A DNA stretch of 64,000 nucleotides, taken from contig OX597817.1 of NCBI GenBank assembly GCA_951406725.2, positions 110,112,001-110,176,000 on the forward strand, in the 5' to 3' direction. Both the position numbers and the translations under genes were made by a program. The stretch is from Octopus vulgaris. Lineage: Eukaryota. Shown here in pieces: positions 51,709 through 64,000 of the stretch. The notes below the pieces were generated by a model. The model ran no database searches and was not told the DNA's origin. It worked only from the letters and a program-made list of their open reading frames with translations. Within the stretch, counting starts at the first letter, position 1; every line of letters starts with the position of its first letter.

Positions 51709-51835
51709 GTATTTGGAGTAGATAATGACTTATATTATCAATCCAACATCAACGACTCAACTACAGTAAAACGTCTAACAAAAGATGGAATATTAAATCA
51801 AATATTCAATGGAGTTCCTGACTGGTTGTATGAAG
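51709..51835 (+). CDS. DPP4-family exon F (VFGVDNDLYYQSNINDSTTVKRLTKDGILNQIFNGVPDWLYE-E)
   Basis: Acceptor attttcag, donor gtaagc at 51836; hallmark NGxxDWxYEE motif. Confidence 0.95.
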
Positions 51836-52690
51836 GTAAGCTAGAATGGTTTTTTTATGGCTTTCCATAGTCCAGTTGGTCTGTATTTATCTCAAGTCTT
51901 CATAGAATTAAGCTGACAGGAGACATACGTATTTTACCAGAAAACACTATGAAATCTTTTTAGCATGGATCTTGGTGATTAATTCTCCACTGACAGTTCC
52001 TAATATTAGGTAGGCTGTGAATGAAGATGAGAAATGATCACATTAATATTATTTGAGTTGTCATGTCATATATTTTTATTAACTCATTTTATTTATATGC
52101 ACATGCATACATAGATTTGATTTAATGGAACAACATTCAACTGTTGCATGCAAATAATATGTGTATGATCTGACATTACAGCACAAGGTCAATACCTCTT
52201 ATCGAACATAATACAAGTATGTTCAATAAGAAAAGTAGAAGACGACGACATAGCTCCATGTGGTCTGCTGGATGGTTCTCTGATCTGAGGCTGAATTTGC
52301 CAGCTTTTATAATCATTATCAAAAGTTTTCTACAAACTTCAATCAAGCTATTTGGCAGGAAAACATGCACACTTCCTTTGAAATTCACTGCATCAACCAT
52401 AACAAGTCAGTCAATGCTGATTGATTGAGCCATATTTGCTTGGGCATTAATACTTTTTATAGCAGTACATTGCTTTTTATGATAGTGCTGTAGGTCATGG
52501 TCCTGACCTGGAAAAATCTGAGGGCGATGGTTCAACAGTAAGCAAGAGCCCCATTACTGAAGTCTTCTTACAGTTTATTATAACGCAAACAAAAAGATTG
52601 TCAGTTAGAGCAACAAAAGCAGATATATTTTCACAAACTATAAAAGAAAAGAGTTCACAAGGTATACAGAATTCAAAATAGTTCAATATA

Positions 52691-53928
52691 CCAGGTCATC
52701 CCATAAGTTCTGTCTGAATTTTGAATAAAGAAAACAAGTGATCAAATGTTATATTTAATAGAAGTTTAATCATCAGTGTACTTTCCCTGATTATCTATGA
52801 CTTCCTCCCATCTATTTACAAGCTTTTTAATCCCCTCAATGTAAAACTCTTTTGGTTTCAAAGCAAAGAACTCTGAAATGTCAGTTTCGACCTCCTCTGG
52901 GCTTGCGAAAGTTATGTCCCTCAAATGATTCTGTAAACTACGAAACAAATGGTAGTCTGAAGGAGCAAGGTCAGGAGAATAAGGTGGATGAGGAATTTTT
53001 TCCCAACCAAGCTCTTCGATCTTCTGTGATGTGATCTTTGCAGTGTGGGGTCATACATTGTCCTGATGAAATATCACTCCTTTTCAATTCACTAAAGTGA
53101 GTCTTTTTTTCTTCAAAGTTTCGTTCAAACGCTCTAACTGCTGACAGTAGACTTGAGCATTGATTGTTGCATTAGGTGGTAACAAGTCAAAGTAAATTAC
53201 TCTTTTGCTATCCCACCAGATAGAGAGAAGAACCTTTTTTCCATGAAGTTCCCTTCTCAGTTGTGGTTGAGCTTTTTCCCTTTTATCAAGCCACTGTTTA
53301 TGACGATTAACATTTCAATAGAAGATCCACTTTTTGTCACAAGCCTATCCAAAAAGGGTGAAATGAGTTCATGAGAATGGAGAGAAGAGCAGTTGTCAAC
53401 TTGGGATTTGCGGTTGCTGTTGAACAATTCATGAGGCCTCCATTTTCCAAGTTGTTGAAGATGACGATGAACAGTTGTATGGTTTGAACTAAGCTTTATT
53501 GCCAATTCTTCAAATGATAATGCAGAATGCCTCACGGAGCTTATCATCGAACTCAAATGGACATCCTGTTCAATCTTCATCTTCTAGGCTGAAATCTCCA
53601 CTTCTGAATTTTGCAAACCAGCTTCTGCAAGTTCTTTCGTTCAAGCATTCTTCTCATAAACTGAGTGTATGTTTCGAATCGCTTCGGCTGCAGAGTTTCC
53701 CATAAAGGATTATGTGCCTCAAATGCTCTTTAGATACTTCCATGTTAAAAAGGGTTTTAATCAAAGAAATTTTAATTCTATTATTCTGTAAAATAATATT
53801 CAATTAGTTTAAATGTACACAAATGCATAAAAATGATTTTTAATTGCATTAGACATTCTAAAATACTATTAAATTTCATTCAATTTTAAAAAAAGGTAAA
53901 ACCAGACAGAACTTATGGGATGACCTGG
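52691..53928 (-). mobile_element. Full-length decayed mariner DNA transposon
   Basis: Perfect 26-bp TIRs CCAGGTCATCCCATAAGTTCTGTCTG with TA flanks; transposase remnants inside. Confidence 0.95.
52766..53743 (-). pseudogene. Mariner transposase pseudogene
   Basis: MEVSKEHLRHIIL start, W.PHEL, HQDN..PH and PHPPYSPDLAPSDYHLFRSLQ motifs, with frameshifts and stops. Confidence 0.92.
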
Positions 53929-53934
53929 TAGCAC

Positions 53935-54345
53935 AGAAATGTGGTATCATACATAAAATACATGTTCATACTTGGCCAGCCAATGAACTTTTCTGCCACT
54001 TTTAAGAGTAATGTAGTAATGTCTTGTTTTAGGAACAACAGATTTATGTGCTGAAGGTGTCTGTGTATGAATAAGTAATTTTATCATTGTGCGTCAAATG
54101 TATTCGCATCAAGTTGAGCTTTTTTAAATTGTGTCAATATGGTGAAATGAATTGTAAAAAGCAGAAAAAGACTGGGAGTCTGTTTAGCAGGTACCAAAGG
54201 TCATTCAAGATCCATAGAAATATCATACCATATACACTCCATGGAAGCAGGCAGAGAAACCAGATAAAATTTTAAAGATGATACAGAGTTCTTCAGTTGT
54301 TGTAATTCATCCAATTCTTAGTCATTAGCAAGTTTTTCCAAATCA
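53935..54345 (-). mobile_element. Very decayed Gypsy pol (RNaseH-integrase linker) remnant
   Basis: Minus strand reads SIDLEKLAND*ELDELQQLKNSVSSLK..VSLPAS...WYDISM...PLVPA, resembling the Gypsy pre-integrase region. Confidence 0.4.
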
Positions 54346-55189
54346 ATGGAATCACTGTGGTGCACAGAATTCACATAGAATATATATATATATATATAAT
54401 AGAAAATTTAGACAAATATGTATAATTAGGTTAGTGCGTTTAAATGCTGAGTAGAGCACCAGCACAGTTCAGGCTATCTGTTGTTATCTGTAGTTGTGGT
54501 ACACTTCCATTGGATTTACTTCAGGAACTTCACAGTGGCAGTATTAATTAATAGTAAGAGATGGATTTTGTATTAGACTTTTATCATGTACAACATGTTT
54601 CGACCCATCAGTCTGGGTCTCTTCAGGTACATTGATAAAGAAGTTTCAGTAGAGATTTTTAGTGTCAGCAGGCTTCTTGTTATATGTCCATCGAGTTTGA
54701 AAATTAATAAAAGCAAAAAATTCAAATATGAACGTGGAAAGCATACATTCCAGTTTAGATAAAATGATATAATCAGCTTCCGCTGTAATAACTGCTTAGG
54801 GAAAAAAGAAAGTAGAAGGTGAAAGGAAGATTAATACTAAGACAAATATTTTCGTGTTCGTGCATATACACACTCACACACATGTACATACATCCACACA
54901 TTTTTACTATATACTTGGTCTTATTATTGTTCTTATTTTAGTGTTCTTTGTCTTAAATCTATCATCACACATCTTGTGACCTCTTCAGTAATTCTCCATC
55001 CCATGTCTTCCTATTCTGTTTAGTTCATTCTGTCTTTCTGTGATGTCTATTCTTATCTGCACATACACCTGATTTATTACATGGTTTGTACCCTGGTCCA
55101 CTAAAGGAGCTTTTTGTGAGTACCACCAGATTAGATAAATCCATATATTGTGCATTAAATTTATATATATATATATGTGTGTGTGTGTG

Positions 55190-55475
55190 TATTCTCCTAC
55201 TAGATCATCCTATCAGGGCTTTACTCGCATTTGATGCAGCAGCTGCTGGCTGGAAGAGGCCTCATAGCAAGCCCCACACCAGATAGCTGGATGTGATTGG
55301 GGAAGATTTCCAGAGGCTTGATGTCACCTTTGAGGATGCAAGGGGTACTGGCACTGGACCACCAGCAATGGTGAGCACTGGTGAAACTGGTCGGCTCTAT
55401 GCATTGCGATGTCTCTGGGACCTCTAACCTGTGATGACCCCCACCCCATCAAGCAAGAGCATGAAGTAAGAAAGT
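55190..55475 (+). mobile_element. RTE-type LINE 3' end fragment
   Basis: DHPIRALL...GWKRP..KP.TR*LDVI.ED...ALD..QW, followed by a short (AAGT)-like tail. Confidence 0.6.
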
Positions 55476-55584
55476 ATTTGTACAGTAGAAGATATAATGT
55501 TTAATAGTAACCAATAAAGAACTAGGCAAGCTGATATAACACAGATAAATTTATAGTACTATAGAAATTAATATAGTACAGTTT

Positions 55585-56499
55585 TTACATCACTTTATGT
55601 GATTGCATTAGATCAGTCATTTCATGTGATGGAGGTACTGTGAAGTCTTTACGTTTCCCGCAACATAATTTCCGAATACTTCGTTTTAGACTTGTATCAG
55701 AAAGCCACAAAAACGGCACCACTAAAAATCTTGACAAGAATATTAAAAACGCTATGTAAATCTTTTGTTCAACTATTTTTTTATACATTAGAAAATACGT
55801 AATGTTTTCAATAGAGTAGACAACTATGATGAATACAACAATAACTATCACAGTTATTAATGATGATTTTATTGTATCATTTTCTCTACTCTTCGCGGCA
55901 ATGCTGATCAATAGACATACAAATACTAGCATTGACATAATATATAAGTTCACTATAGCTAAATAGATATGGTAGGAAATAGTATCTAAGAATATCTTAC
56001 ATGAGCCACCTTCGTAATATGAGCCAGCTAGAGTCATTGATAATACTTTGATCCAGATAAAAGCCCACAAAACCACTGTTAATATGATCTGCACGCACAG
56101 AAAACTTTGACTTTCATATTTGCTTGGTTTAAAGTATTTTACGATAAAATCGCAGCAAATAGGGAGCATGAAATAAACAGCACCCTCCTCAGCCACGGAA
56201 CTTAGTATAAAAATCACTAAGCAGCTAGACAGTGGCAAATCATTGAATATAAAAATGTGTACGTAACGGAAATAAAAAAGCAAGGCAAACAGTGTGTAGT
56301 TAAACATATAAGTCAACAGTACGAAAGAGCGTGTTTTTTCATAGACTCTACGATCTAGGAAAATGGCAATCGTTAACAACGCGTTGAGCGCGAATATTAT
56401 GATGACTGCAATACAAGCAGTTATACTTATCCAGTTAAACGCAGGGTTTGCATTAGTTGTAGAATTGTATTCTTGTTCGTTCTGTTCAAGATTTTCCAT
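55585..56499 (-). CDS. Intronless divergent 7TM (rhodopsin/class A-like) orphan GPCR, 304 aa, nested antisense in a DPP4-family intron
   Basis: Uninterrupted ORF with strong Kozak context (aacATGG) and seven hydrophobic segments. It has an N-terminal NST sequon, TM1 Asn (FALNALL), Cys at the top of TM3 (SSCLV) and in ECL2 (GSCKI), CDFIVKYFKPSKY at the DRY...P..Y position, TM4 Trp, TM7 VVPFLW, and helix-8 SLKRSIRKLCC. Confidence 0.88.
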   Translation of the reverse strand: MENLEQNEQEYNSTTNANPAFNWISITACIAVIIIFALNALLTIAIFLDRRVYEKTRSFVLLTYMFNYTLFALLFYFRYVHIFIFNDLPLSSCLVIFILSSVAEEGAVYFMLPICCDFIVKYFKPSKYESQSFLCVQIILTVVLWAFIWIKVLSMTLAGSYYEGGSCKIFLDTISYHIYLAIVNLYIMSMLVFVCLLISIAAKSRENDTIKSSLITVIVIVVFIIVVYSIENITYFLMYKKIVEQKIYIAFLIFLSRFLVVPFLWLSDTSLKRSIRKLCCGKRKDFTVPPSHEMTDLMQSHKVM

Positions 56500-56973
56500 G
56501 TTGCTTTAGCCACAATTGCTTCAAACTTAGTCGTTATTTTTAGATAGTTTTCGGAATAATGTTATACAGTTTACACTTGTTGAATGTTCGCGGAGTTCTT
56601 TGTTATACGTTTCCGGTGTTCTCATATTAAACGTCCCCGGTGTTCATGTGTGTGTGTGTGTTGTGTGTGTGTGTGTGTAATACGGTAAGGCTTCAACAAG
56701 TAGTATAACACTCGGTCACCTAAGAGTGTAAAAGTAATGTTACAATAAAACCACAAATCTTGTTAAATACCGCATCTCTTGTTTAATCGTCATCTTCTCA
56801 AAAGACAACTGACAAATGGTCTTGATCTCAGATTGGAAAATGGTGAAATAAATCATTTCGACCAGAAAACCCTGTGTAGCTCTATTTCACAAGATTTGCG
56901 GGTTTTATTATAACAATATACTCTTCTACATGTGTAGATAGACAGAAACCATATGTGTATATATTTTTTTGCT

Positions 56974-57325
56974 AACCCTAAAACCCTAACCCTAACCCTA
57001 AAACCCTAACCCTTAAAGCTAAAATCAGTACAAACGCATGAACGATGTCATAAATAACAGTGACTAACGAAAAACACATCGCCAATAGTTGTTGTTGACA
57101 AACAACGGCAGTAATTTTATTCAGTTGAATACACGTCATTGATTGGTTGAAATTACCAAAATAGGACAACTTTAATGTGAAATAACTTTGTAAATATAAG
57201 TTTTTCTCAAAAATGCTTACAGTAAAAGATGTTTTATATGACACATTCTACCAGTGTCCGAAGTTTGAAAGTGTTTAGTTACAAAAAATTATTTTTTAAA
57301 TCTGTCAGTCAAAAGGTAAGACCCT
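56974..57325 (-). mobile_element. Single MITE arm (family of 35462 and 26735) with telomere-like (CCCTAA)n tract
   Basis: 57070-57325 is the reverse complement of 35462-35715; taaccctaaaaccctaaccctaaccctaaaaccctaaccct at 56974-57012. Confidence 0.75.
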
Positions 57326-57401
57326 GCGTTTTTTTTATATTTTTTTTATCAATATTCAATTTTGCTTGCAATAGCTGGTTCTTTTGGTCAAACTATCATA
57401 T

Positions 57402-58185
57402 TGTAGCGAGGCACAAGAAGCCAGCACCATTTTGTACAAGATCTCGCTGGTAGCCATTACCATGTCCGAGTAACAATCTGCCATCAACCTGCACGCGGTG
57501 AATCTATCCCAGATAAAAACTTATGGTCAGGTCTCATTACCCCTAGATCTCAACCTTCAAAGGGATTTTAGGTGGGTTTTTGTTATAGCAGATCTACCGT
57601 ACCCCATTCTGGACGTGGATTTCTTAATCCACTGTCACTTATTACTATATGTCAGGCGACAGAGACTCATGGACAATTCTACGTCTTTGTTTACGCCTAC
57701 TCAGGTTACTAATAATGCTGTTTTCAGCTTGTCATTTGTCACCACTGCTGGTGACCAGTTCCACTCCCTGTTGGCTTCTTTCCCAGAGCTGGTAGATCCG
57801 ACTTTCAAATCAATCGAAGTCACACACTCAACTCGCCATTATATGGCCCACCCATCTTTTCAGTCCATGGCGACTCGCTCCTGATCTGCTCAAAAAGGCT
57901 TTATCTGAGTTTGAGCATATGCTTCAACTCGGCCTTATTCGCTCCTCCACCAGCCCTTGGGCATCCCCTCTACATTTGGCATGGAGCTATAATGAACCTT
58001 GCGCTGCCATAAAGATGGTCACTGGAAGTGAGCCACATGAACGAGAACTAAAAATAAACGACTATTGAATTGCACTCAGCTTGTAAACTTCTTCTTTGTG
58101 TTCCAGATCCTTAAGACTACAGAAATAAATTATAATGGGAGAAGGAGATACTCCACAGGTATCACAAGCCTTCAATTCCATTATA
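57402..58185 (+). mobile_element. Internally deleted Gypsy LTR element: LTR 5' part, protease/RT-start fragment, LTR 3' part
   Basis: Ends are homologous to solo LTR 2673-3122. The interior encodes IKTYG..SL.LDL...F.WVFVIAD..YPIL..DFL (retropepsin) and EFEHMLQLGLIRSSTSPWASPLHL (RT start). Confidence 0.85.
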
Positions 58186-58739
58186 TTTCCAGCTGCTTCA
58201 GATGAAAATTATCAAAGCATAGTACAATGGTTTAGCATTTTTCAAAAGTGTAGTATGCAGCACATACAACAGTTTGGCAAAAATATTTCTGACTGAAAAT
58301 ATACATGAATAGGGTTGTGTAGTATGGTGGTATAGTGGTATGATGGTGTTATGAGGTGGGAGAGGCTAGAGTAGGGAAAGCAAGGGTGGCATGTGGGTTA
58401 GGCTGAGGGTGGGGGTAGAGGTGGGGTATGTGGGTAGGCAGAGGGTGGGGTATGTGGAGAGGCAGAGGGTGGGGGTAGGGATGGGGTATGTGGGAGTAGG
58501 TGTAAGGGGTGGGGTAGGATGGGAAGGCTAGTGAAGGTGGGTTGGAATGTGTAGGGGTGAGGTGAGGTTACAAGGAAGGGGTGACGATGAATGGGGGAAG
58601 GAGAAGGTGGGTAGGAGTTAAGAGAAGAAGTAGGAGTTGGAGCAAGAGAGGAGAGGTGGGTGGGAGGAAGTAGGTGTGAGGGGGAGAGAGGCGATGGGAG
58701 GAGGTTAGATGAAGAGAGGAGGAGAGTCGAACCCATGTG

Positions 58740-59715
58740 GTGCAAAGGAGTGAAGAGAGATTAATCCCTGTTCACAGTACAAATGGGAGTCCAGATGGCC
58801 CCTGTGCAAGGACAATCCGAACACAGTCAGGTGTTGCAAAGAGTAACCGGTAGAGCAGAAATGGCGCAAGACCAGGGTGTCATTGCCAAGTTGGATATCT
58901 CAGAGGTGTTCTGCGAACCAGTCAGCCAAGCGCTGTCCCGTATGCCCGATGTATAGAGAAGGGCAAAGAGAGCAGGAGATGCAGTAGATGACATTGGTAG
59001 AAGTGCAGGTGAAGGAGTCAGTGATGTGATAGGGTCAATGATGGGTGCCAGTGAAGAGGGTGGTGTTGGAGAGGTAATGGCAAGTGTGGTAGCATGGGCG
59101 GGAGCAGGAGAACGAGCCAGGTTGGGTTAGGGAAGAAGCTGTGAACCAAGAGGTCGCGTACGTTGTGGGCTTATTTGAAGGAGAGAAGGGGTCAGTTAGA
59201 AAAGATGTGCGAAGTGGAGAGGTCAGACTGGAGTCTCCGGAAGGCTCGGAGAATGGTGTATTGGAGAGGTAGGGTGGTGGGGTGGTAGGTAAGGGGAAAT
59301 GGGAGGCGGGATACAGCGGGGCAGGTTCAAGGAGAGAGCAGATGCATGGTCCATGGAACGTGCTCTGGTAAGGGTGGTGTGGATAGTGGTGAGGGGATAT
59401 CCACGTAGGATGAAGTGGCAAGCCATGAGTTGAGACCAAGTCTCATGGTTATGGTCGTCACTACAGAACCTGCTTAGATGGAGGAATTGGGAATAGGGGA
59501 TGGAAAGCTTGGTGTGTTTAGGGTGGGAGGAGAAGTTGAGGTATGAATGTGAGTCTGTGTGTTTATAGTGGATGGAGGTGGTGAGAGTGGAGTGATGAAT
59601 GCTGACTGAAATGTCAAGAAAGGAGACAAAGGTGTCAGAGATAGTGCAGGGAAAGTGGAGAGTAGGATGGAAAAATTTGACAAAAGAGAAGAAGGAATCT
59701 AGATGTTCACAGAAG
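58740..59715 (-). mobile_element. Penelope-like element fragment (RT C-terminus plus GIY-YIG endonuclease)
   Basis: Minus strand encodes FTCTSTNVIYCISCSLCPSLYIGHTGQRL..FAEHL (GIY-YIG), plus FLDISV, YK.TDS and RGYP motifs; purine-rich flank at 58320-58740. Confidence 0.85.
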
Positions 59716-59769
59716 AGTGAAGACGCACATGTATATATGTGTGTGTGTGTGTATGTATATATATAACAG

Positions 59770-60775
59770 ATAAGATAGCTTTCATGTGCGGCAGATGCAC
59801 AGGGACAATAGACACAACAGACACTCAGAAAACAGATTCCATCACACTCCAGGGAGAGAAACTAGAAGTAGTTGATAGTTTCCGCTACCTGGGTGACCAA
59901 GTTAGTAGCGGAGGTGGATGCACAGAGAGTATCACCACTAGAATACGAATAGCCTGGGCAAAGTTCAGAAAGCTCCTACCCCTACTGGCAACAAAAGGTC
60001 TCTCCCTCAGAGCGAAAGGTAGATTGTATGATGCATGTGTGCGAACTGCCATGCTTCACGGTAATGAAACATGGGCTGTGACTGCAGAGGACATGCGTAG
60101 ACTTGAAAGAAATGAAGCTAGCATGATCCGCTGGATGTGTAGTGTCAGTGTGCACGCAAGACAGAGTGTAAGCATCCTAAGAGAAATGCTGGATATAAGA
60201 AGCATCAGATGTGGTATGCAAGAGCGACGCTTGCGATGGTATGGTCATGTGCTGCGGATGGATGAAGAGAGATGTGTGAAGAAGTGCCACTCCCAAACAG
60301 TTGAAGGTATCAGGGGGAGAGGTAGACCCAGGAAGACATGGGATGAGGTAGTCAAGCATGACCTCAGAGCATTGGGCCTCACTGAGGCAATGGCGAAGGA
60401 CCGAGATCTCTGGAGATATGCTGTGACTGCAAAGACCCGGGCTGCTTTCTGCAGCAATTCCACATACCCCCTACCCATTCAAAGTACCCCGGATCCCCAA
60501 AGTACCCCGGACCCAGTTGCCCCCATGCCGCTGGCACGTTAAAAGCTCGAACCGATCGTGACCGATGCCGGACCCCCCGGCCCCTGTGCAGGTGGCACGT
60601 AAAAAGCACCCAATCCACTCACGGAGTGGTTGGCGTTAGGAAGGGCATCCAGCCGTAGAAACTCTGCCAAATCAGACTGGAGCCTGGAGTGACCCCTGGC
60701 TTCCCAGACCCCAGTCGAACCGTCCAACCCGTGCTAGCGCGGAAAACGGACGTTAAACGATGATGATGATGATGA
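59770..60775 (+). mobile_element. 5'-truncated, relatively young RTE LINE (ORF C-terminus, 3' UTR, (GAT)n tail)
   Basis: Open frame LEVVDSFRYLG...RIRIAWAKF...RRLRWYGHVLRM...GRGRPRKTW; CpG-rich 3' UTR ending aaacgatgatgatg. Confidence 0.92.
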
Positions 60776-61819
60776 TACACACACACATATATATATATAT
60801 ATAGTGACTAACCTTCAATTTTTTTATCAACTTGCTCCATTATAATTTTATATTTCGGATATTCAAATATTTCTTTCAAACATTTGAGATCTACAATATG
60901 CCAGGAATAGATCAGTTTCATTCTTTAGCATTTAAACTGGCCTTGTCTGAACCAAATATTCAACCTGTTTTATATTCAACTTACCCAAATGTGGCCTCTC
61001 ACACCTACCCTGCAATGTTGTCAAAGCTACAACATAATACACGATTAATTCAAAACAATGTGAATAAGCATTAAAATTTGATAAGCATAATAAAATAGAA
61101 ATTTTGACATTCCGGCAGACTTAAATAACTACAAATAACCAGTTTTTACATATTCTAAGTTTCACACAGATACCCACTTGTATATGAGCTGATGTGCCTA
61201 AAATAAACAATATATACCACTTTTCTATCTAAACTTATCAGGTGTGGGGGGATAGCAACAAATTATTTCTGTGATAAATAAAAAGATATAATTGTTTCCC
61301 CAACTTTTTGATATTTTACAATATGTCTATCTTATTACCACATGCCTAACACCTTGGGCTTGTATCTACTGTCATAGCTTTCGGTTGAGCCAATCCTTGT
61401 GAGTGGAACTGAGCCAGTGGAAACTGTACAGAAATACATTGGATGGAATATAGCTATTGTATTTTTCCAACATTGGAACTGCTAACTCCTATTTTCCACT
61501 TACCATGGATCGTAACTACACAATTCTTTATTTGGACATTACCAACTCTCTTCATTTGTTCATGGATTTACCTCATGAATACATATTTTAATTGGACTTT
61601 AATTGAATTGCTCCTCTTTTAGACAATATGAACAATAAATAATATTAGTTAGCTGTTGTGTAATGTTCTTCCACAGTTACATCTGTTTATCTTTTCATTC
61701 TCTGATGACTGTTTACTTGGCACATGGAATCTTTGCTCAGCATGAAGTTCCAATAGATGGGATGTTCTAGAAACAGCTGTTAGAGACTAAATACATCTCT
61801 TCATTATGTTATAATATTC

Positions 61820-62360
61820 ATCATCATCATCATTTAACGTCCACTTTCTATGCTAGCATGGGCTGGACAATTTGACTGAGGTCTGGCGAACCAGACTCCA
61901 ATCTGATCTGGCAGACTTTCCTTCCTAACTCCAACCACTCTGGGAGTGTAGTGGGTGCTTTTATGTGACAATTTGGTGGTACTGGCAATGGCCACGCTCA
62001 AATGGTGCTTTTTATGTGCCACCTGCACAGGAGCCAGTCCAGCGGCACTGGCAACTACCTCGCTCAAATGTTTTTTTCACGTGCCACCAGCGCAAGTGCT
62101 AGTAAGGCAACGCAGGTAACGATCATGCTCGAATGGTGTGTTTAACGTGCCATCGGCACAAAGGCTAGCTTGTTGCTCTGGCAACGATCTCACTCGTATG
62201 GTACTCTTAGTGCTCCACTAGCAACGGATGCCAGTCACCGAGTTTGATTTCGATTTCACTTGCCTCAACTGGTCTTCACAAGCAGAGTTTAGTGTCCAAT
62301 GAAAGAAAGGCATGCATAAGTTGACTGGTTACACCCCCTAGGTTATGGTCACACTTGCGC
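61820..62360 (-). mobile_element. RTE 3'-end fragment (inverted relative to 59770-60775)
   Basis: (CAT)n followed by ttaacgtcc...tgctagcatggg...ccaaccactc...gtgctttttatgtgcca. Confidence 0.75.
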
Positions 62361-64000
62361 TTGCCAAGTGTGTTATGTTATAATATTATATAACTAAATT
62401 AAATGACATTGTGAAGTTTTACCATATTGTTTGCCCCCTTCATTTCTGCTTTCACACACACGTGTGCACAAACACACACACACACACATAAATCAATGTG
62501 TCATGTTACCCTATCCAACAGAAATGTCATGATGGTCATTGGTATTTACAAGGAATATCTAATTATATATTGTTGTATGCCCTCCTTTCCCCTCTCAAGT
62601 TCACCCACCCCAGTCAATCCTATTCCAACAGAGCTGTGTTACAAATATAGTTGATTGAACATTTGGGTGTGCCTACTTATCCAACTCTCACCATATTTCA
62701 TGCCCTTCCATCCTACTCAATTTTTCATTATGTGTATATAACAAGGATTAACTAAATTTACCTATGGAGATTTGTTTATAGTTGTTGGGTTTTATGTGTG
62801 TTTTTTTTTTTTTAGTAAATCAGAAGTTATAAGCTGAGAAATTGTGATATGAAAATGCTTTAGATTGCTCTCAAGTCCCAGTATATGTTGATCATATGGA
62901 TATCACATCTTACAAATATCCTATATATACAGAATATAGTGTCACATTGATTAAAAAGTTAATGAGGTTAAATATACTATGCTCTTCACAGTGTTGTCAT
63001 CAACTCATACCGAAATATAGCAAAATGGATAGTACTTTAGGGGTATTGGAATGGTAGAATCACTAAAACAGCAGGCAAAATGCATTGCACTATTTAATTG
63101 CATCTCTTTACATTCCAAGTTTGGATCTCATCAAGGTTGACTTTGCCTTTTGATCCTTTAGGGTTTGATAAAACATAGTACCAGTCAAATACTTGATTCA
63201 AAATTTGTAGCCTTATGTCATATCATCGTTTAAGATCCTCTTTTCCACATTTGCATGGGTCAGATGGAATTTATTGAAACAGATTTTTTACAGCCGGATG
63301 CTCTTCCTGTTTCCAGGAAGTGAGGTAAATATTTCTCCATGTTTTCATGGAAGATTGGAAATGGAGGACACCACTTACATGATGGTGACATTTACATTTA
63401 TCACATAAAGTCAAGGCAAGGAGGCTGTAACACACACATACACACACACACACACACATATGATGGGCTTCCTTCAATTTCAGTTTAACAGATTCACTCA
63501 CAAGGCTTCGGTTGGCCCAGGGCTATGTTAGAAAACATTTGCCCAAAGTACCATATAGTGGGACTGAACCCAAGACCATGTGGTTGAGAAGCAAACTTCT
63601 TACCACACAGCTATGCTTGCACCTAACAAGCTTTGGCATTCATTCTCTTTGAATTAATAAAATTAAAGTACCACTCAGTACCAGCCTAATATTGAGGTTG
63701 ATTTAATCAGCTAAAGCCACAGCCAAAATGCAGTGTGGCTGATGATATGTGCATCTCTGATCACGAGCAGAAGTAGTCGGGAGTATCAGTTATAGCCATG
63801 TTTTGAGGGGCATTCTTTGGGGTTTGGATAATTCACCTCTGGAAACTTGGGTGTTTCGTTCATTATCCTTAAACAACCTTTAATCAAGAACCTTTTGAGT
63901 GGGATAGGCTACTCAACCTGAAGAAAATTCTAATTGAGCCCCGCCTGCAAGGTCGTGCGCTCTTTATCTTGATATGAAATCATCATATTGCACATATATG

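Follow-up and report, generated by a model that had tools for sequence, protein, structure and literature searches.

Class A GPCRs have undergone lineage-specific expansions in Lophotrochozoa, and 23 genes of this kind are counted in Octopus sinensis (Nath et al., 2025; PMC11886862). In the available text of that study, the expansions form tandem arrays with variable extracellular halves and a proposed chemosensory role, DRY and NPxxY are reported as common motifs, and the pipeline combines wider profiles with a 7TM protein screen; cephalopods are counted there as poor in chemosensory GPCRs. A second set, compiled by the Pfam profile PF00001, includes the GPCR expansion groups 1 and 2 of Ritschard et al. 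(2019; PMC6408891). In the accessible part of this report, both groups consist of class A receptors that arose by tandem duplication and subsequent dispersal, are under positive selection and are expressed outside the brain.

Genes also spread through RNA. Many retrogenes are known to have recruited a promoter, and LTR-mediated retrocopies can carry their own, as the available sections of the relevant work describe (Casola and Betran; PMC5470649). Among non-LTR elements, Dong targets TAA repeats (PMC3812793, in part). The portions at hand of two further reports describe Dong-R4 as recently active in O. vulgaris (PMC13282606), whereas in O. bimaculoides nothing pointed to Dong having been active recently (PMC9115989).

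Here, we describe a locus of Octopus vulgaris at which these two subjects meet. The window, by which we mean the whole analysed stretch of 64,000 nt on contig C4, contains a receptor gene in antisense orientation within a DPP4 intron. The reading that we favour, with a probability of about 0.65, is that this gene encodes a predicted orphan receptor of class A fold, that it is a likely functional retrocopy, with a LINE-derived leader, of a member of a receptor array on contig C17, and that it came to lie in the DPP4 gene by chance. An earlier note on this DNA, made from the letters alone, had recognized the receptor and its nesting; the 5' UTR intron of the receptor family, the likely retrocopy origin and the LINE-derived leader are new beyond that first reading.

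A receptor gene nested in a DPP4 intron

Three features define the locus:
51709..51835, plus strand: DPP4 exon, residues 206-248 of protein P0019, with a phase-1 GT donor (DPPIV_N match, protein-guided gene model)
51836..64000, plus strand: host DPP4 intron, 17,215 nt in total, which continues to window coordinate 69050 (G000:C4:110181050) and is followed by the next exon at 69051
55585..56499, minus strand: receptor ORF, single exon, 304 aa (ORF call and translation, AF2, structure search)

The receptor ORF is unbroken over 304 codons from ATG to TAA, and among the four ORFs of at least 200 aa in the 64-kb window it is the single one that is not part of a transposon, just as it had first been read. 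Its C-terminal six codons are former 3' UTR, read through via a TAA-to-CAA change. Of the other three frames, those at 59223-59861 and 59721-60542 are presumably retroelement pieces, with no Pfam match obtained for the latter, and the frame at 496-1098 has a weak Pfam match to Helitron.

The earlier note had pointed out that the phase-1 donor needs a downstream exon, and had made the nesting depend on the DPP gene resuming on the same contig. This is where it resumes, 5 kb past the end of the window: the exon that ends at 51835 (last base G, then GTAAG; phase 1) joins in frame with the exon at window coordinate 69051, and the nesting is therefore real. The phase-1 intron between them holds the receptor antisense, and DPPIV_N matches flank the receptor ORF on both sides. 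Guided by the O. sinensis DPP4 protein, we place the host gene on the plus strand between window coordinates of about -15,160 and 128,530. It spans ~144 kb, almost all of it intron. The encoded protein combines DPPIV_N and S9 domains, in which the serine of the GWSYG motif, the Asp and the His are all intact; this triad rules out a DPP6/10-like host and renders the idea of a Kv4 subunit inapplicable to it. A second prolyl-oligopeptidase (S9) gene is located on the same contig (G000:C4:43614011-43618892).

A class A fold with replaced motifs

The AF2 model of the receptor, built from a 12-sequence alignment (pLDDT 79.9, pTM 0.76), consists of seven long helices and a helix 8, which agrees with the seven TM segments recognized from the sequence. 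The Foldseek matches listed for this model are class A GPCR structures with TM scores of ~0.6-0.7. In a wide structure search, the best 50 rows are all GPCRs with scores tied within ~2 units, and dopamine D3 is matched with a Z score of 23.3 (rmsd 3.0 over 258 residues); the GPCRs matched by fold include amine, lipid, nucleotide and peptide receptors. Structure prediction and fold search, two of the checks proposed in the earlier note, thus recovered the GPCR fold, but the 7tm_1 profile search proposed alongside them came back empty: in a Pfam scan at E<=10, neither the receptor nor any of the 12 family members scanned matches 7tm_1 or another GPCR profile. A PDB sequence search with the receptor yields 5-HT receptors only, as weak matches (E 0.007 and 0.036), and an Atlas search with the paralogue P0007 yields orphan class-A-like clusters at 0.96.

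When compared with dopamine D3 (9f33), the beta1-adrenergic receptor (2y00) and 5-HT2A (8zmg), the nested receptor shares the 7TM bundle, helix 8 and a set of class A landmarks, namely N39 (N1.50), the pair C93 (C3.25)/C167 (ECL2), D3.49, W145 (W4.50) and P262 (P7.50). In its 12 paralogues, N39, C93, C167, W145 and P262 are present in 8, 11, 11, 12 and 11 cases, respectively. It differs from these receptors in its low sequence identity of 8-18%, in the missing 7tm_1 match, and in the loss of R3.50, D2.50, CWxP and NPxxY, and no subfamily is singled out. The non-canonical micro-switches are all present as originally read, with DFI at 117-119, VPFLW at 261-265 and no CWxP. Across the family, the end of TM3 departs from D/E-R-Y, R3.50 being F, V or Y in 12/12 paralogues; position 2.50 is aligned to Y68 in the nested receptor, and D2.50, CWxP, N7.49 and Y7.53 are replaced.

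The receptor family on contig C17 and its relatives

The search for paralogues, also suggested at the outset, retrieved 12 of them, all on the minus strand of a tandem array at C17:54.26-54.39 Mb and 32-58% identical. Eleven are full-length; the remaining one, L006 (G000:C17:54324250), has an early TAA after helix 8, which leaves 286 aa and removes the conserved tail. Phylogenetically, the closest partner of the nested copy is P0011 (100/99), and the two group with the sister gene C17_54364236 (100/99), so that the nested copy is a late offshoot of the C17 family. P0011 is taken as the orthologue of the nested receptor; it is 78-81% identical to it and has the same six-residue read-through tail. 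Several paralogues have a second in-frame stop 4-5 codons past their TAA, to which the nested copy reads; this may reflect nothing more than homology of the UTRs, or else be a remnant of read-through.

Named homologues of the family come from Octopus sinensis, O. bimaculoides and Argonauta only and are all 'uncharacterized', which together with the 12-gene array bears out the proposed lineage-specific expansion. The array genes correspond to LOC115220942/941/990 and LOC118766695 in O. sinensis and to LOC106869328, LOC106877394 and LOC128246974 in O. bimaculoides, and are 96.7-100% identical to the O. sinensis records; for host and receptor proteins, this range is 97-100%. UniRef labels three of the O. 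bimaculoides array proteins as GPCR family 1 profile proteins. For the nested copy, neither a named record nor an annotated copy was found among the O. sinensis and O. bimaculoides proteins listed as matches.

The annotation of the array has a peculiarity of its own. NCBI treats three distinct full-length receptors (L003 at C17:54346822, L002 at 54364236 and L004 at 54386336) as isoforms X1-X3 of LOC115220942, and handles LOC106869328 likewise. Such a shared isoform locus hints at coding exons that share one non-coding leader. The leader exon of the sister gene, which ends at C17:54368988, lies above two of these three receptors and below the third, and a search of the array for a further copy of this exon found none.

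A family profile search of 1.84 billion proteins returned 10 matches, three of which are 7tm_1-positive bridges that include a Sepia protein. These are P0026, P0027 and P0028, with E values of 6.9e-8, 1.7e-6 and 1.7e-4 to the family profile and of 4e-10, 3e-5 and 9e-45 to 7tm_1. Two older single-exon relatives with weak 7tm_1 matches are found in the octopus genome itself, both on the plus strand: one at C17:54437047-54437988, which is arranged head-to-head with the array and carries DRC (hhalign against the family: E 8e-6), and one at C24:37704168-37705139, which is 58% identical to a Sepia protein. The D-R pair is kept in the distant relatives P0026 and C17:54437047. These 7tm_1-positive relatives with D-R bridge the family to class A and so argue, on sequence grounds, for class A descent. 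Because several defining motifs fail in spite of this descent, we regard the family, as judged from its sequences and models, as class-A-derived rather than as a canonical class A member.

This has consequences for the surveys cited above. Like the expansions of Nath et al., the C17 family forms a tandem array with variable extracellular halves and a candidate chemosensory role, but unlike them, it does not have the DRY and NPxxY motifs which the available text reports as common (PMC11886862). In the one supplementary file of that study at hand, 0/5 array accessions are present; its Zenodo data may include the family. With groups 1 and 2 of Ritschard et al., it has its class A affinity, tandem duplication followed by dispersal and positive selection in common, but 0/12 members scanned match the PF00001 profile by which, in the accessible part, that set was compiled (PMC6408891), and the family was therefore likely missed. 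Our literature search found no description of the six array locus identifiers, of an octopus GPCR retrogene or of a GPCR in a dipeptidyl-peptidase intron. The octopus receptor family is under-described, and it is positively selected.

An exon edge at which the intron is missing

The flanks of the receptor ORF contain three features:
56500..56526, minus strand: 5' UTR piece, 27 nt, with homology to the first bases of the coding exon in the paralogues (alignment to the three closest paralogues)
55465..55584, minus strand: 3' UTR, ~120-135 nt, which aligns with that of the sister paralogue (alignment score 104, 0/200 shuffles) and contains ATTAAA at 80 nt from the stop
55195..55455, plus strand: decayed LINE fragment abutting the 3' UTR (repeat homology), which we take to be RTE-like by its C-terminal motif

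A TTTCAG acceptor is found within ~75 nt above the ATG in 12/12 paralogues, an arrangement expected by chance in 3.3%. One contig of run X9 follows the sister gene up to this acceptor and then continues in a leader exon 4.7 kb upstream, which ends in a GTAAGT donor; the array genes therefore have a 5' UTR intron, and the intronless expansion assumed at first does not hold for them. None of the runs listed is recorded as RNA, but the spliced contig identifies X9 as such, and the sister gene is thus transcribed, the contigs giving neither strand nor level. The contigs of X1, X21 and X22 do not cover the sister gene and those of X16 do not cover the receptor ORF, neither of which is evidence of absence.

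Set against its three closest paralogues, the nested copy shares 21-23 of the 27 nt that lie exonward of the acceptor, but 11-13 of 54 nt on the intron side. Its parental homology thus begins exactly at the exon edge of the paralogues, and the intron is missing. Contigs of three out of four runs (X1, X6 and X9, from three studies) cover the receptor ORF and bridge its 5' junction, which is therefore not an assembly join. The copy is unlinked to the parent array, the former lying on C4 and the latter on C17. We rejected the first exon of the parental gene as the sequence that precedes this edge: the leader of the sister gene is matched no better than by shuffled sequences (82/300 as good; one of four alignments reached 6/500), and a genome search with the nested copy's leader found no match in the C17 array.

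The leader is the 5' end of a LINE

Two features lie immediately upstream:
56531..56645, minus strand, sense to the receptor: LINE 5' end, 115 nt, with three decayed 5' repeat units; candidate promoter/leader (nhmmer E 5.6e-13)
56646..56682, no strand: (CA)n microsatellite that borders the LINE piece on its 5' side (sequence; young copies mostly have (TAA)n)

The leader of the nested copy derives from a Dong/R2-like LINE: it is the 5'-terminal piece of this element and stands 4 nt from the receptor exon edge. Its 115 nt match a dispersed repeat at at least 61 other sites among the genome matches listed, and the donor is a 4.0-kb element with a single long frame that encodes a reverse transcriptase, a CCHC knuckle and an R2-like restriction-like endonuclease. 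Dong, of the R4 clade, is likewise ~4.0 kb long, with the same three parts in one frame and (TAA)n flanks; our assignment to R4 is by this architecture. A TAA run is present in 26/31 flanks of the element's copies that were fetched. In all 31 other 5' ends fetched, the element continues past nt 400, whereas the C4 piece stops at 115; these 31 control copies are young (83-99% identical) and therefore say little about old ones. The C4 piece itself is 73-75% identical to the young copies, which fits the dS of 0.23 on the branch of the nested receptor. Young copies also lie in and beside the C17 array, most of them sense to it.

The element has a canonical GTAAGT donor in its 5' UTR in 7/8 aligned copies (L053, at ~500; L046-L052, L057, L064), and full-length copies may splice into host exons. 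The homology of the C4 piece ends ~60 nt short of this donor, and a join made with the LINE's own GTAAGT was rejected on this ground. A leader of the parental gene that is itself an old LINE end is likewise unsupported, as the sister's leader gives no match to a profile of this 5' end. A short telomere-like run (CCCTAA variant) is located at ~56970-57015, 330 nt above the LINE piece.

How the copy may have arisen

As the copy starts at the exon edge of its paralogues with a LINE 5' end directly above, it probably arose as a processed retrocopy, with a leader taken from a transposon. As the simplest account, we propose that a Dong/R2-like LINE lying sense to the C17 array was transcribed and that the 5' end of this transcript became joined to the receptor coding exon at the acceptor. 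This chimeric RNA of LINE 5' end and receptor exon would then have been reverse-transcribed and inserted on C4, and the copy would have brought along the 5' repeats of the element as a ready-made promoter. The LINE piece may act as the receptor promoter. Against this route stand the donor that is ~60 nt too far, the absence of a visible poly-A tail or target-site duplication and a flank of (CA)n rather than (TAA)n; a template switch or a deletion could yield the same join of LINE and exon.

The same three parts could have come together otherwise. A duplication at the DNA level or a plain retrocopy might have been followed by a separate LINE insertion, later cut to its first 115 nt, with the LINE as a bystander or late-recruited promoter. 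A LINE piece that does not end in a donor GT fits this case. The bases just before the exon also look like those that close the sister's leader exon, and of four alignments between the sister's leader region and the C4 leader, one reached 6/500 shuffles. Poly-A and target-site duplication, whose absence would also fit, are not visible at the 3' edge, where the later LINE fragment abuts the 3' UTR and therefore hides any such trace. Against a separate insertion, the break falls within 4 nt of the acceptor; LINE copies usually lose their 5' side, as the part at hand of a study on human L1 reports (PMC2912911), and here it is the 5' end that is kept; and the LINE 5' profile does not match the sister's leader. 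DNA-level duplication is further at odds with the flanks, where intron and far-flank homology between the nested copy and five paralogues is limited to short repeat-like matches. We therefore consider such a two-step history unlikely.

The proposed processed retrocopy with a LINE leader, in turn, has relatives among the chimeric retrogenes and retrocopies described in the available sections of PMC5470649, with which it shares RNA-based copying, intron loss and recruited regulatory sequence. It differs from the LTR-mediated cases, the only ones for which those sections describe a promoter brought along, in that the donor is a non-LTR element of the restriction-endonuclease type, whose 5' end is joined at a splice acceptor. 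The nested copy apparently preserves a retroposition with a LINE-donated 5' end and would thereby illustrate a possible route to retrocopies that are born with a promoter.

One inner face, many outer faces

Within the family, the inner half of the receptors is more conserved than the outer half (conservation 0.68 against 0.46) and evolves under a lower omega (0.46 against 0.89). A site model with positive selection gives the better fit (M2a vs M1a, LRT 53; 12 genes, 258 codons) and assigns 14% of the sites an omega of 3.0; 18/19 sites with a posterior above 0.8 are on the outer side, in ECL2, outer TM5-TM7 and ECL3. The site models were implemented by ourselves, with branch lengths scaled from M0, and their values can be inflated by loop misalignment or gene conversion. 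L006, with its early stop, was excluded from the alignments A1 and A2 and from the site model, and the N-terminal 19 residues were trimmed.

This selection pattern suggests a family of receptors with one signalling partner and differing ligands. The conserved cytoplasmic face (ICL1, the end of TM3, ICL2 and the transition from TM7 to helix 8) would serve a single shared partner, probably a G protein, and do so in the absence of the DRY arginine. The outer pocket (ECL2 and outer TM5-TM7), which changes fast, would take up small ligands that differ from paralogue to paralogue, as is the case in chemosensory families. DRY and NPxxY are dispensable for signalling in the bitter-taste and vomeronasal receptors. 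Exons of G-alpha subunits, one of them presumably G12/13-like, are located in the genome.

With R3.50, D2.50, CWxP and NPxxY gone, G-protein signalling is not assured. The family could bind ligands as scavengers or through arrestin only, as atypical chemokine receptors do, and the replacement of R3.50 by F, V or Y in 12/12 paralogues, together with the changes at D2.50, CWxP, N7.49 and Y7.53, is what one would expect of such proteins. The cytoplasmic face, however, is the most conserved part of these receptors and retains a class-A-like P-x-x-Y in ICL2 as well as helix 8, so that we give binding without G-protein signalling a small share of the probability. If the receptors do signal through a common partner, as we favour, nature would have tested in the C17 family how such receptors signal once the arginine of DRY is gone.

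As to what is recognized, the tandem array and the diversifying outer face support the earlier description of a candidate chemosensory or orphan receptor, but the chemosensory role itself has about even odds against other recognition roles as far as sequence can tell. The 13 members form a compact set of chemoreceptor candidates in octopus that lends itself to testing. A bolder synthesis, in which a TAA-targeting Dong-type LINE builds self-promoting retrogenes via host acceptors and the exported gene belongs to a Pfam-invisible, arginine-less family whose members serve as octopus odorant or contact chemoreceptors, is speculative, and we doubt that it holds in full.

Is the nested copy functional?

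The nested copy could still be a silent or decaying retropseudogene whose frame has stayed open by luck. The dN/dS comparison proposed in the earlier note gave an omega of 0.60 for the C4 branch (background 0.70, dS 0.23; 7/13 genes, 279 codons), which is not significantly below 1 (p=0.063). The family stop codon has been lost, the copy departs from the family consensus at 12/85 conserved columns, and no annotated copy is listed among the O. sinensis and O. bimaculoides matches. The transcript data do not set it apart either: over the nested copy, the unstranded contigs of X1, X6 and X9 resemble those over other unique parts of the intron, and unspliced DPP4 RNA would explain them.

Several observations nevertheless speak against decay. 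The background omega of the expressed family is itself 0.70, as high as that of the nested branch, and the frame is open in two lineages that are 19-22% apart. In 1500 runs of a neutral simulation, it remained open in 0.2% at a dS of 0.23 and in 4.6% at 0.10. The differences between the nested copy and P0011 avoid conserved columns (7/85 against 41/175 variable ones, p=0.003). On the strength of the 81%-identical orthologue and of this constraint, we argue that the nested copy is probably functional and consider a retropseudogene improbable.

The host gene as a probable chance landing site

It has been speculated that receptor and host are functionally linked, either because DPP4 trims a peptide ligand of the receptor or because the antisense arrangement co-regulates both. 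The intact catalytic triad of the host, the peptide receptors among the fold matches and one RNA run with both DPP4 intron and the transcript of the sister receptor would be compatible with such a link, but we consider it very improbable, given that 12 of the 13 family members reside elsewhere, that the nested copy is a late branch, that receptors for amines, lipids, nucleotides and peptides score alike among the fold matches, and that ~144 kb of nearly pure intron make a large passive target. No DPP gene was found beside the C17 array, which is the home of the family, and this too weighs against the link. Landing in the DPP4 intron was likely incidental, and nesting in this gene is ordinary by itself. 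The intron also yields one further observation: a 1487-nt contig of run X16 aligns over 53760-55074 (site 53216-55074), with a last part that diverges from the window, and possibly represents an unannotated exon or transcript within the DPP4 intron.
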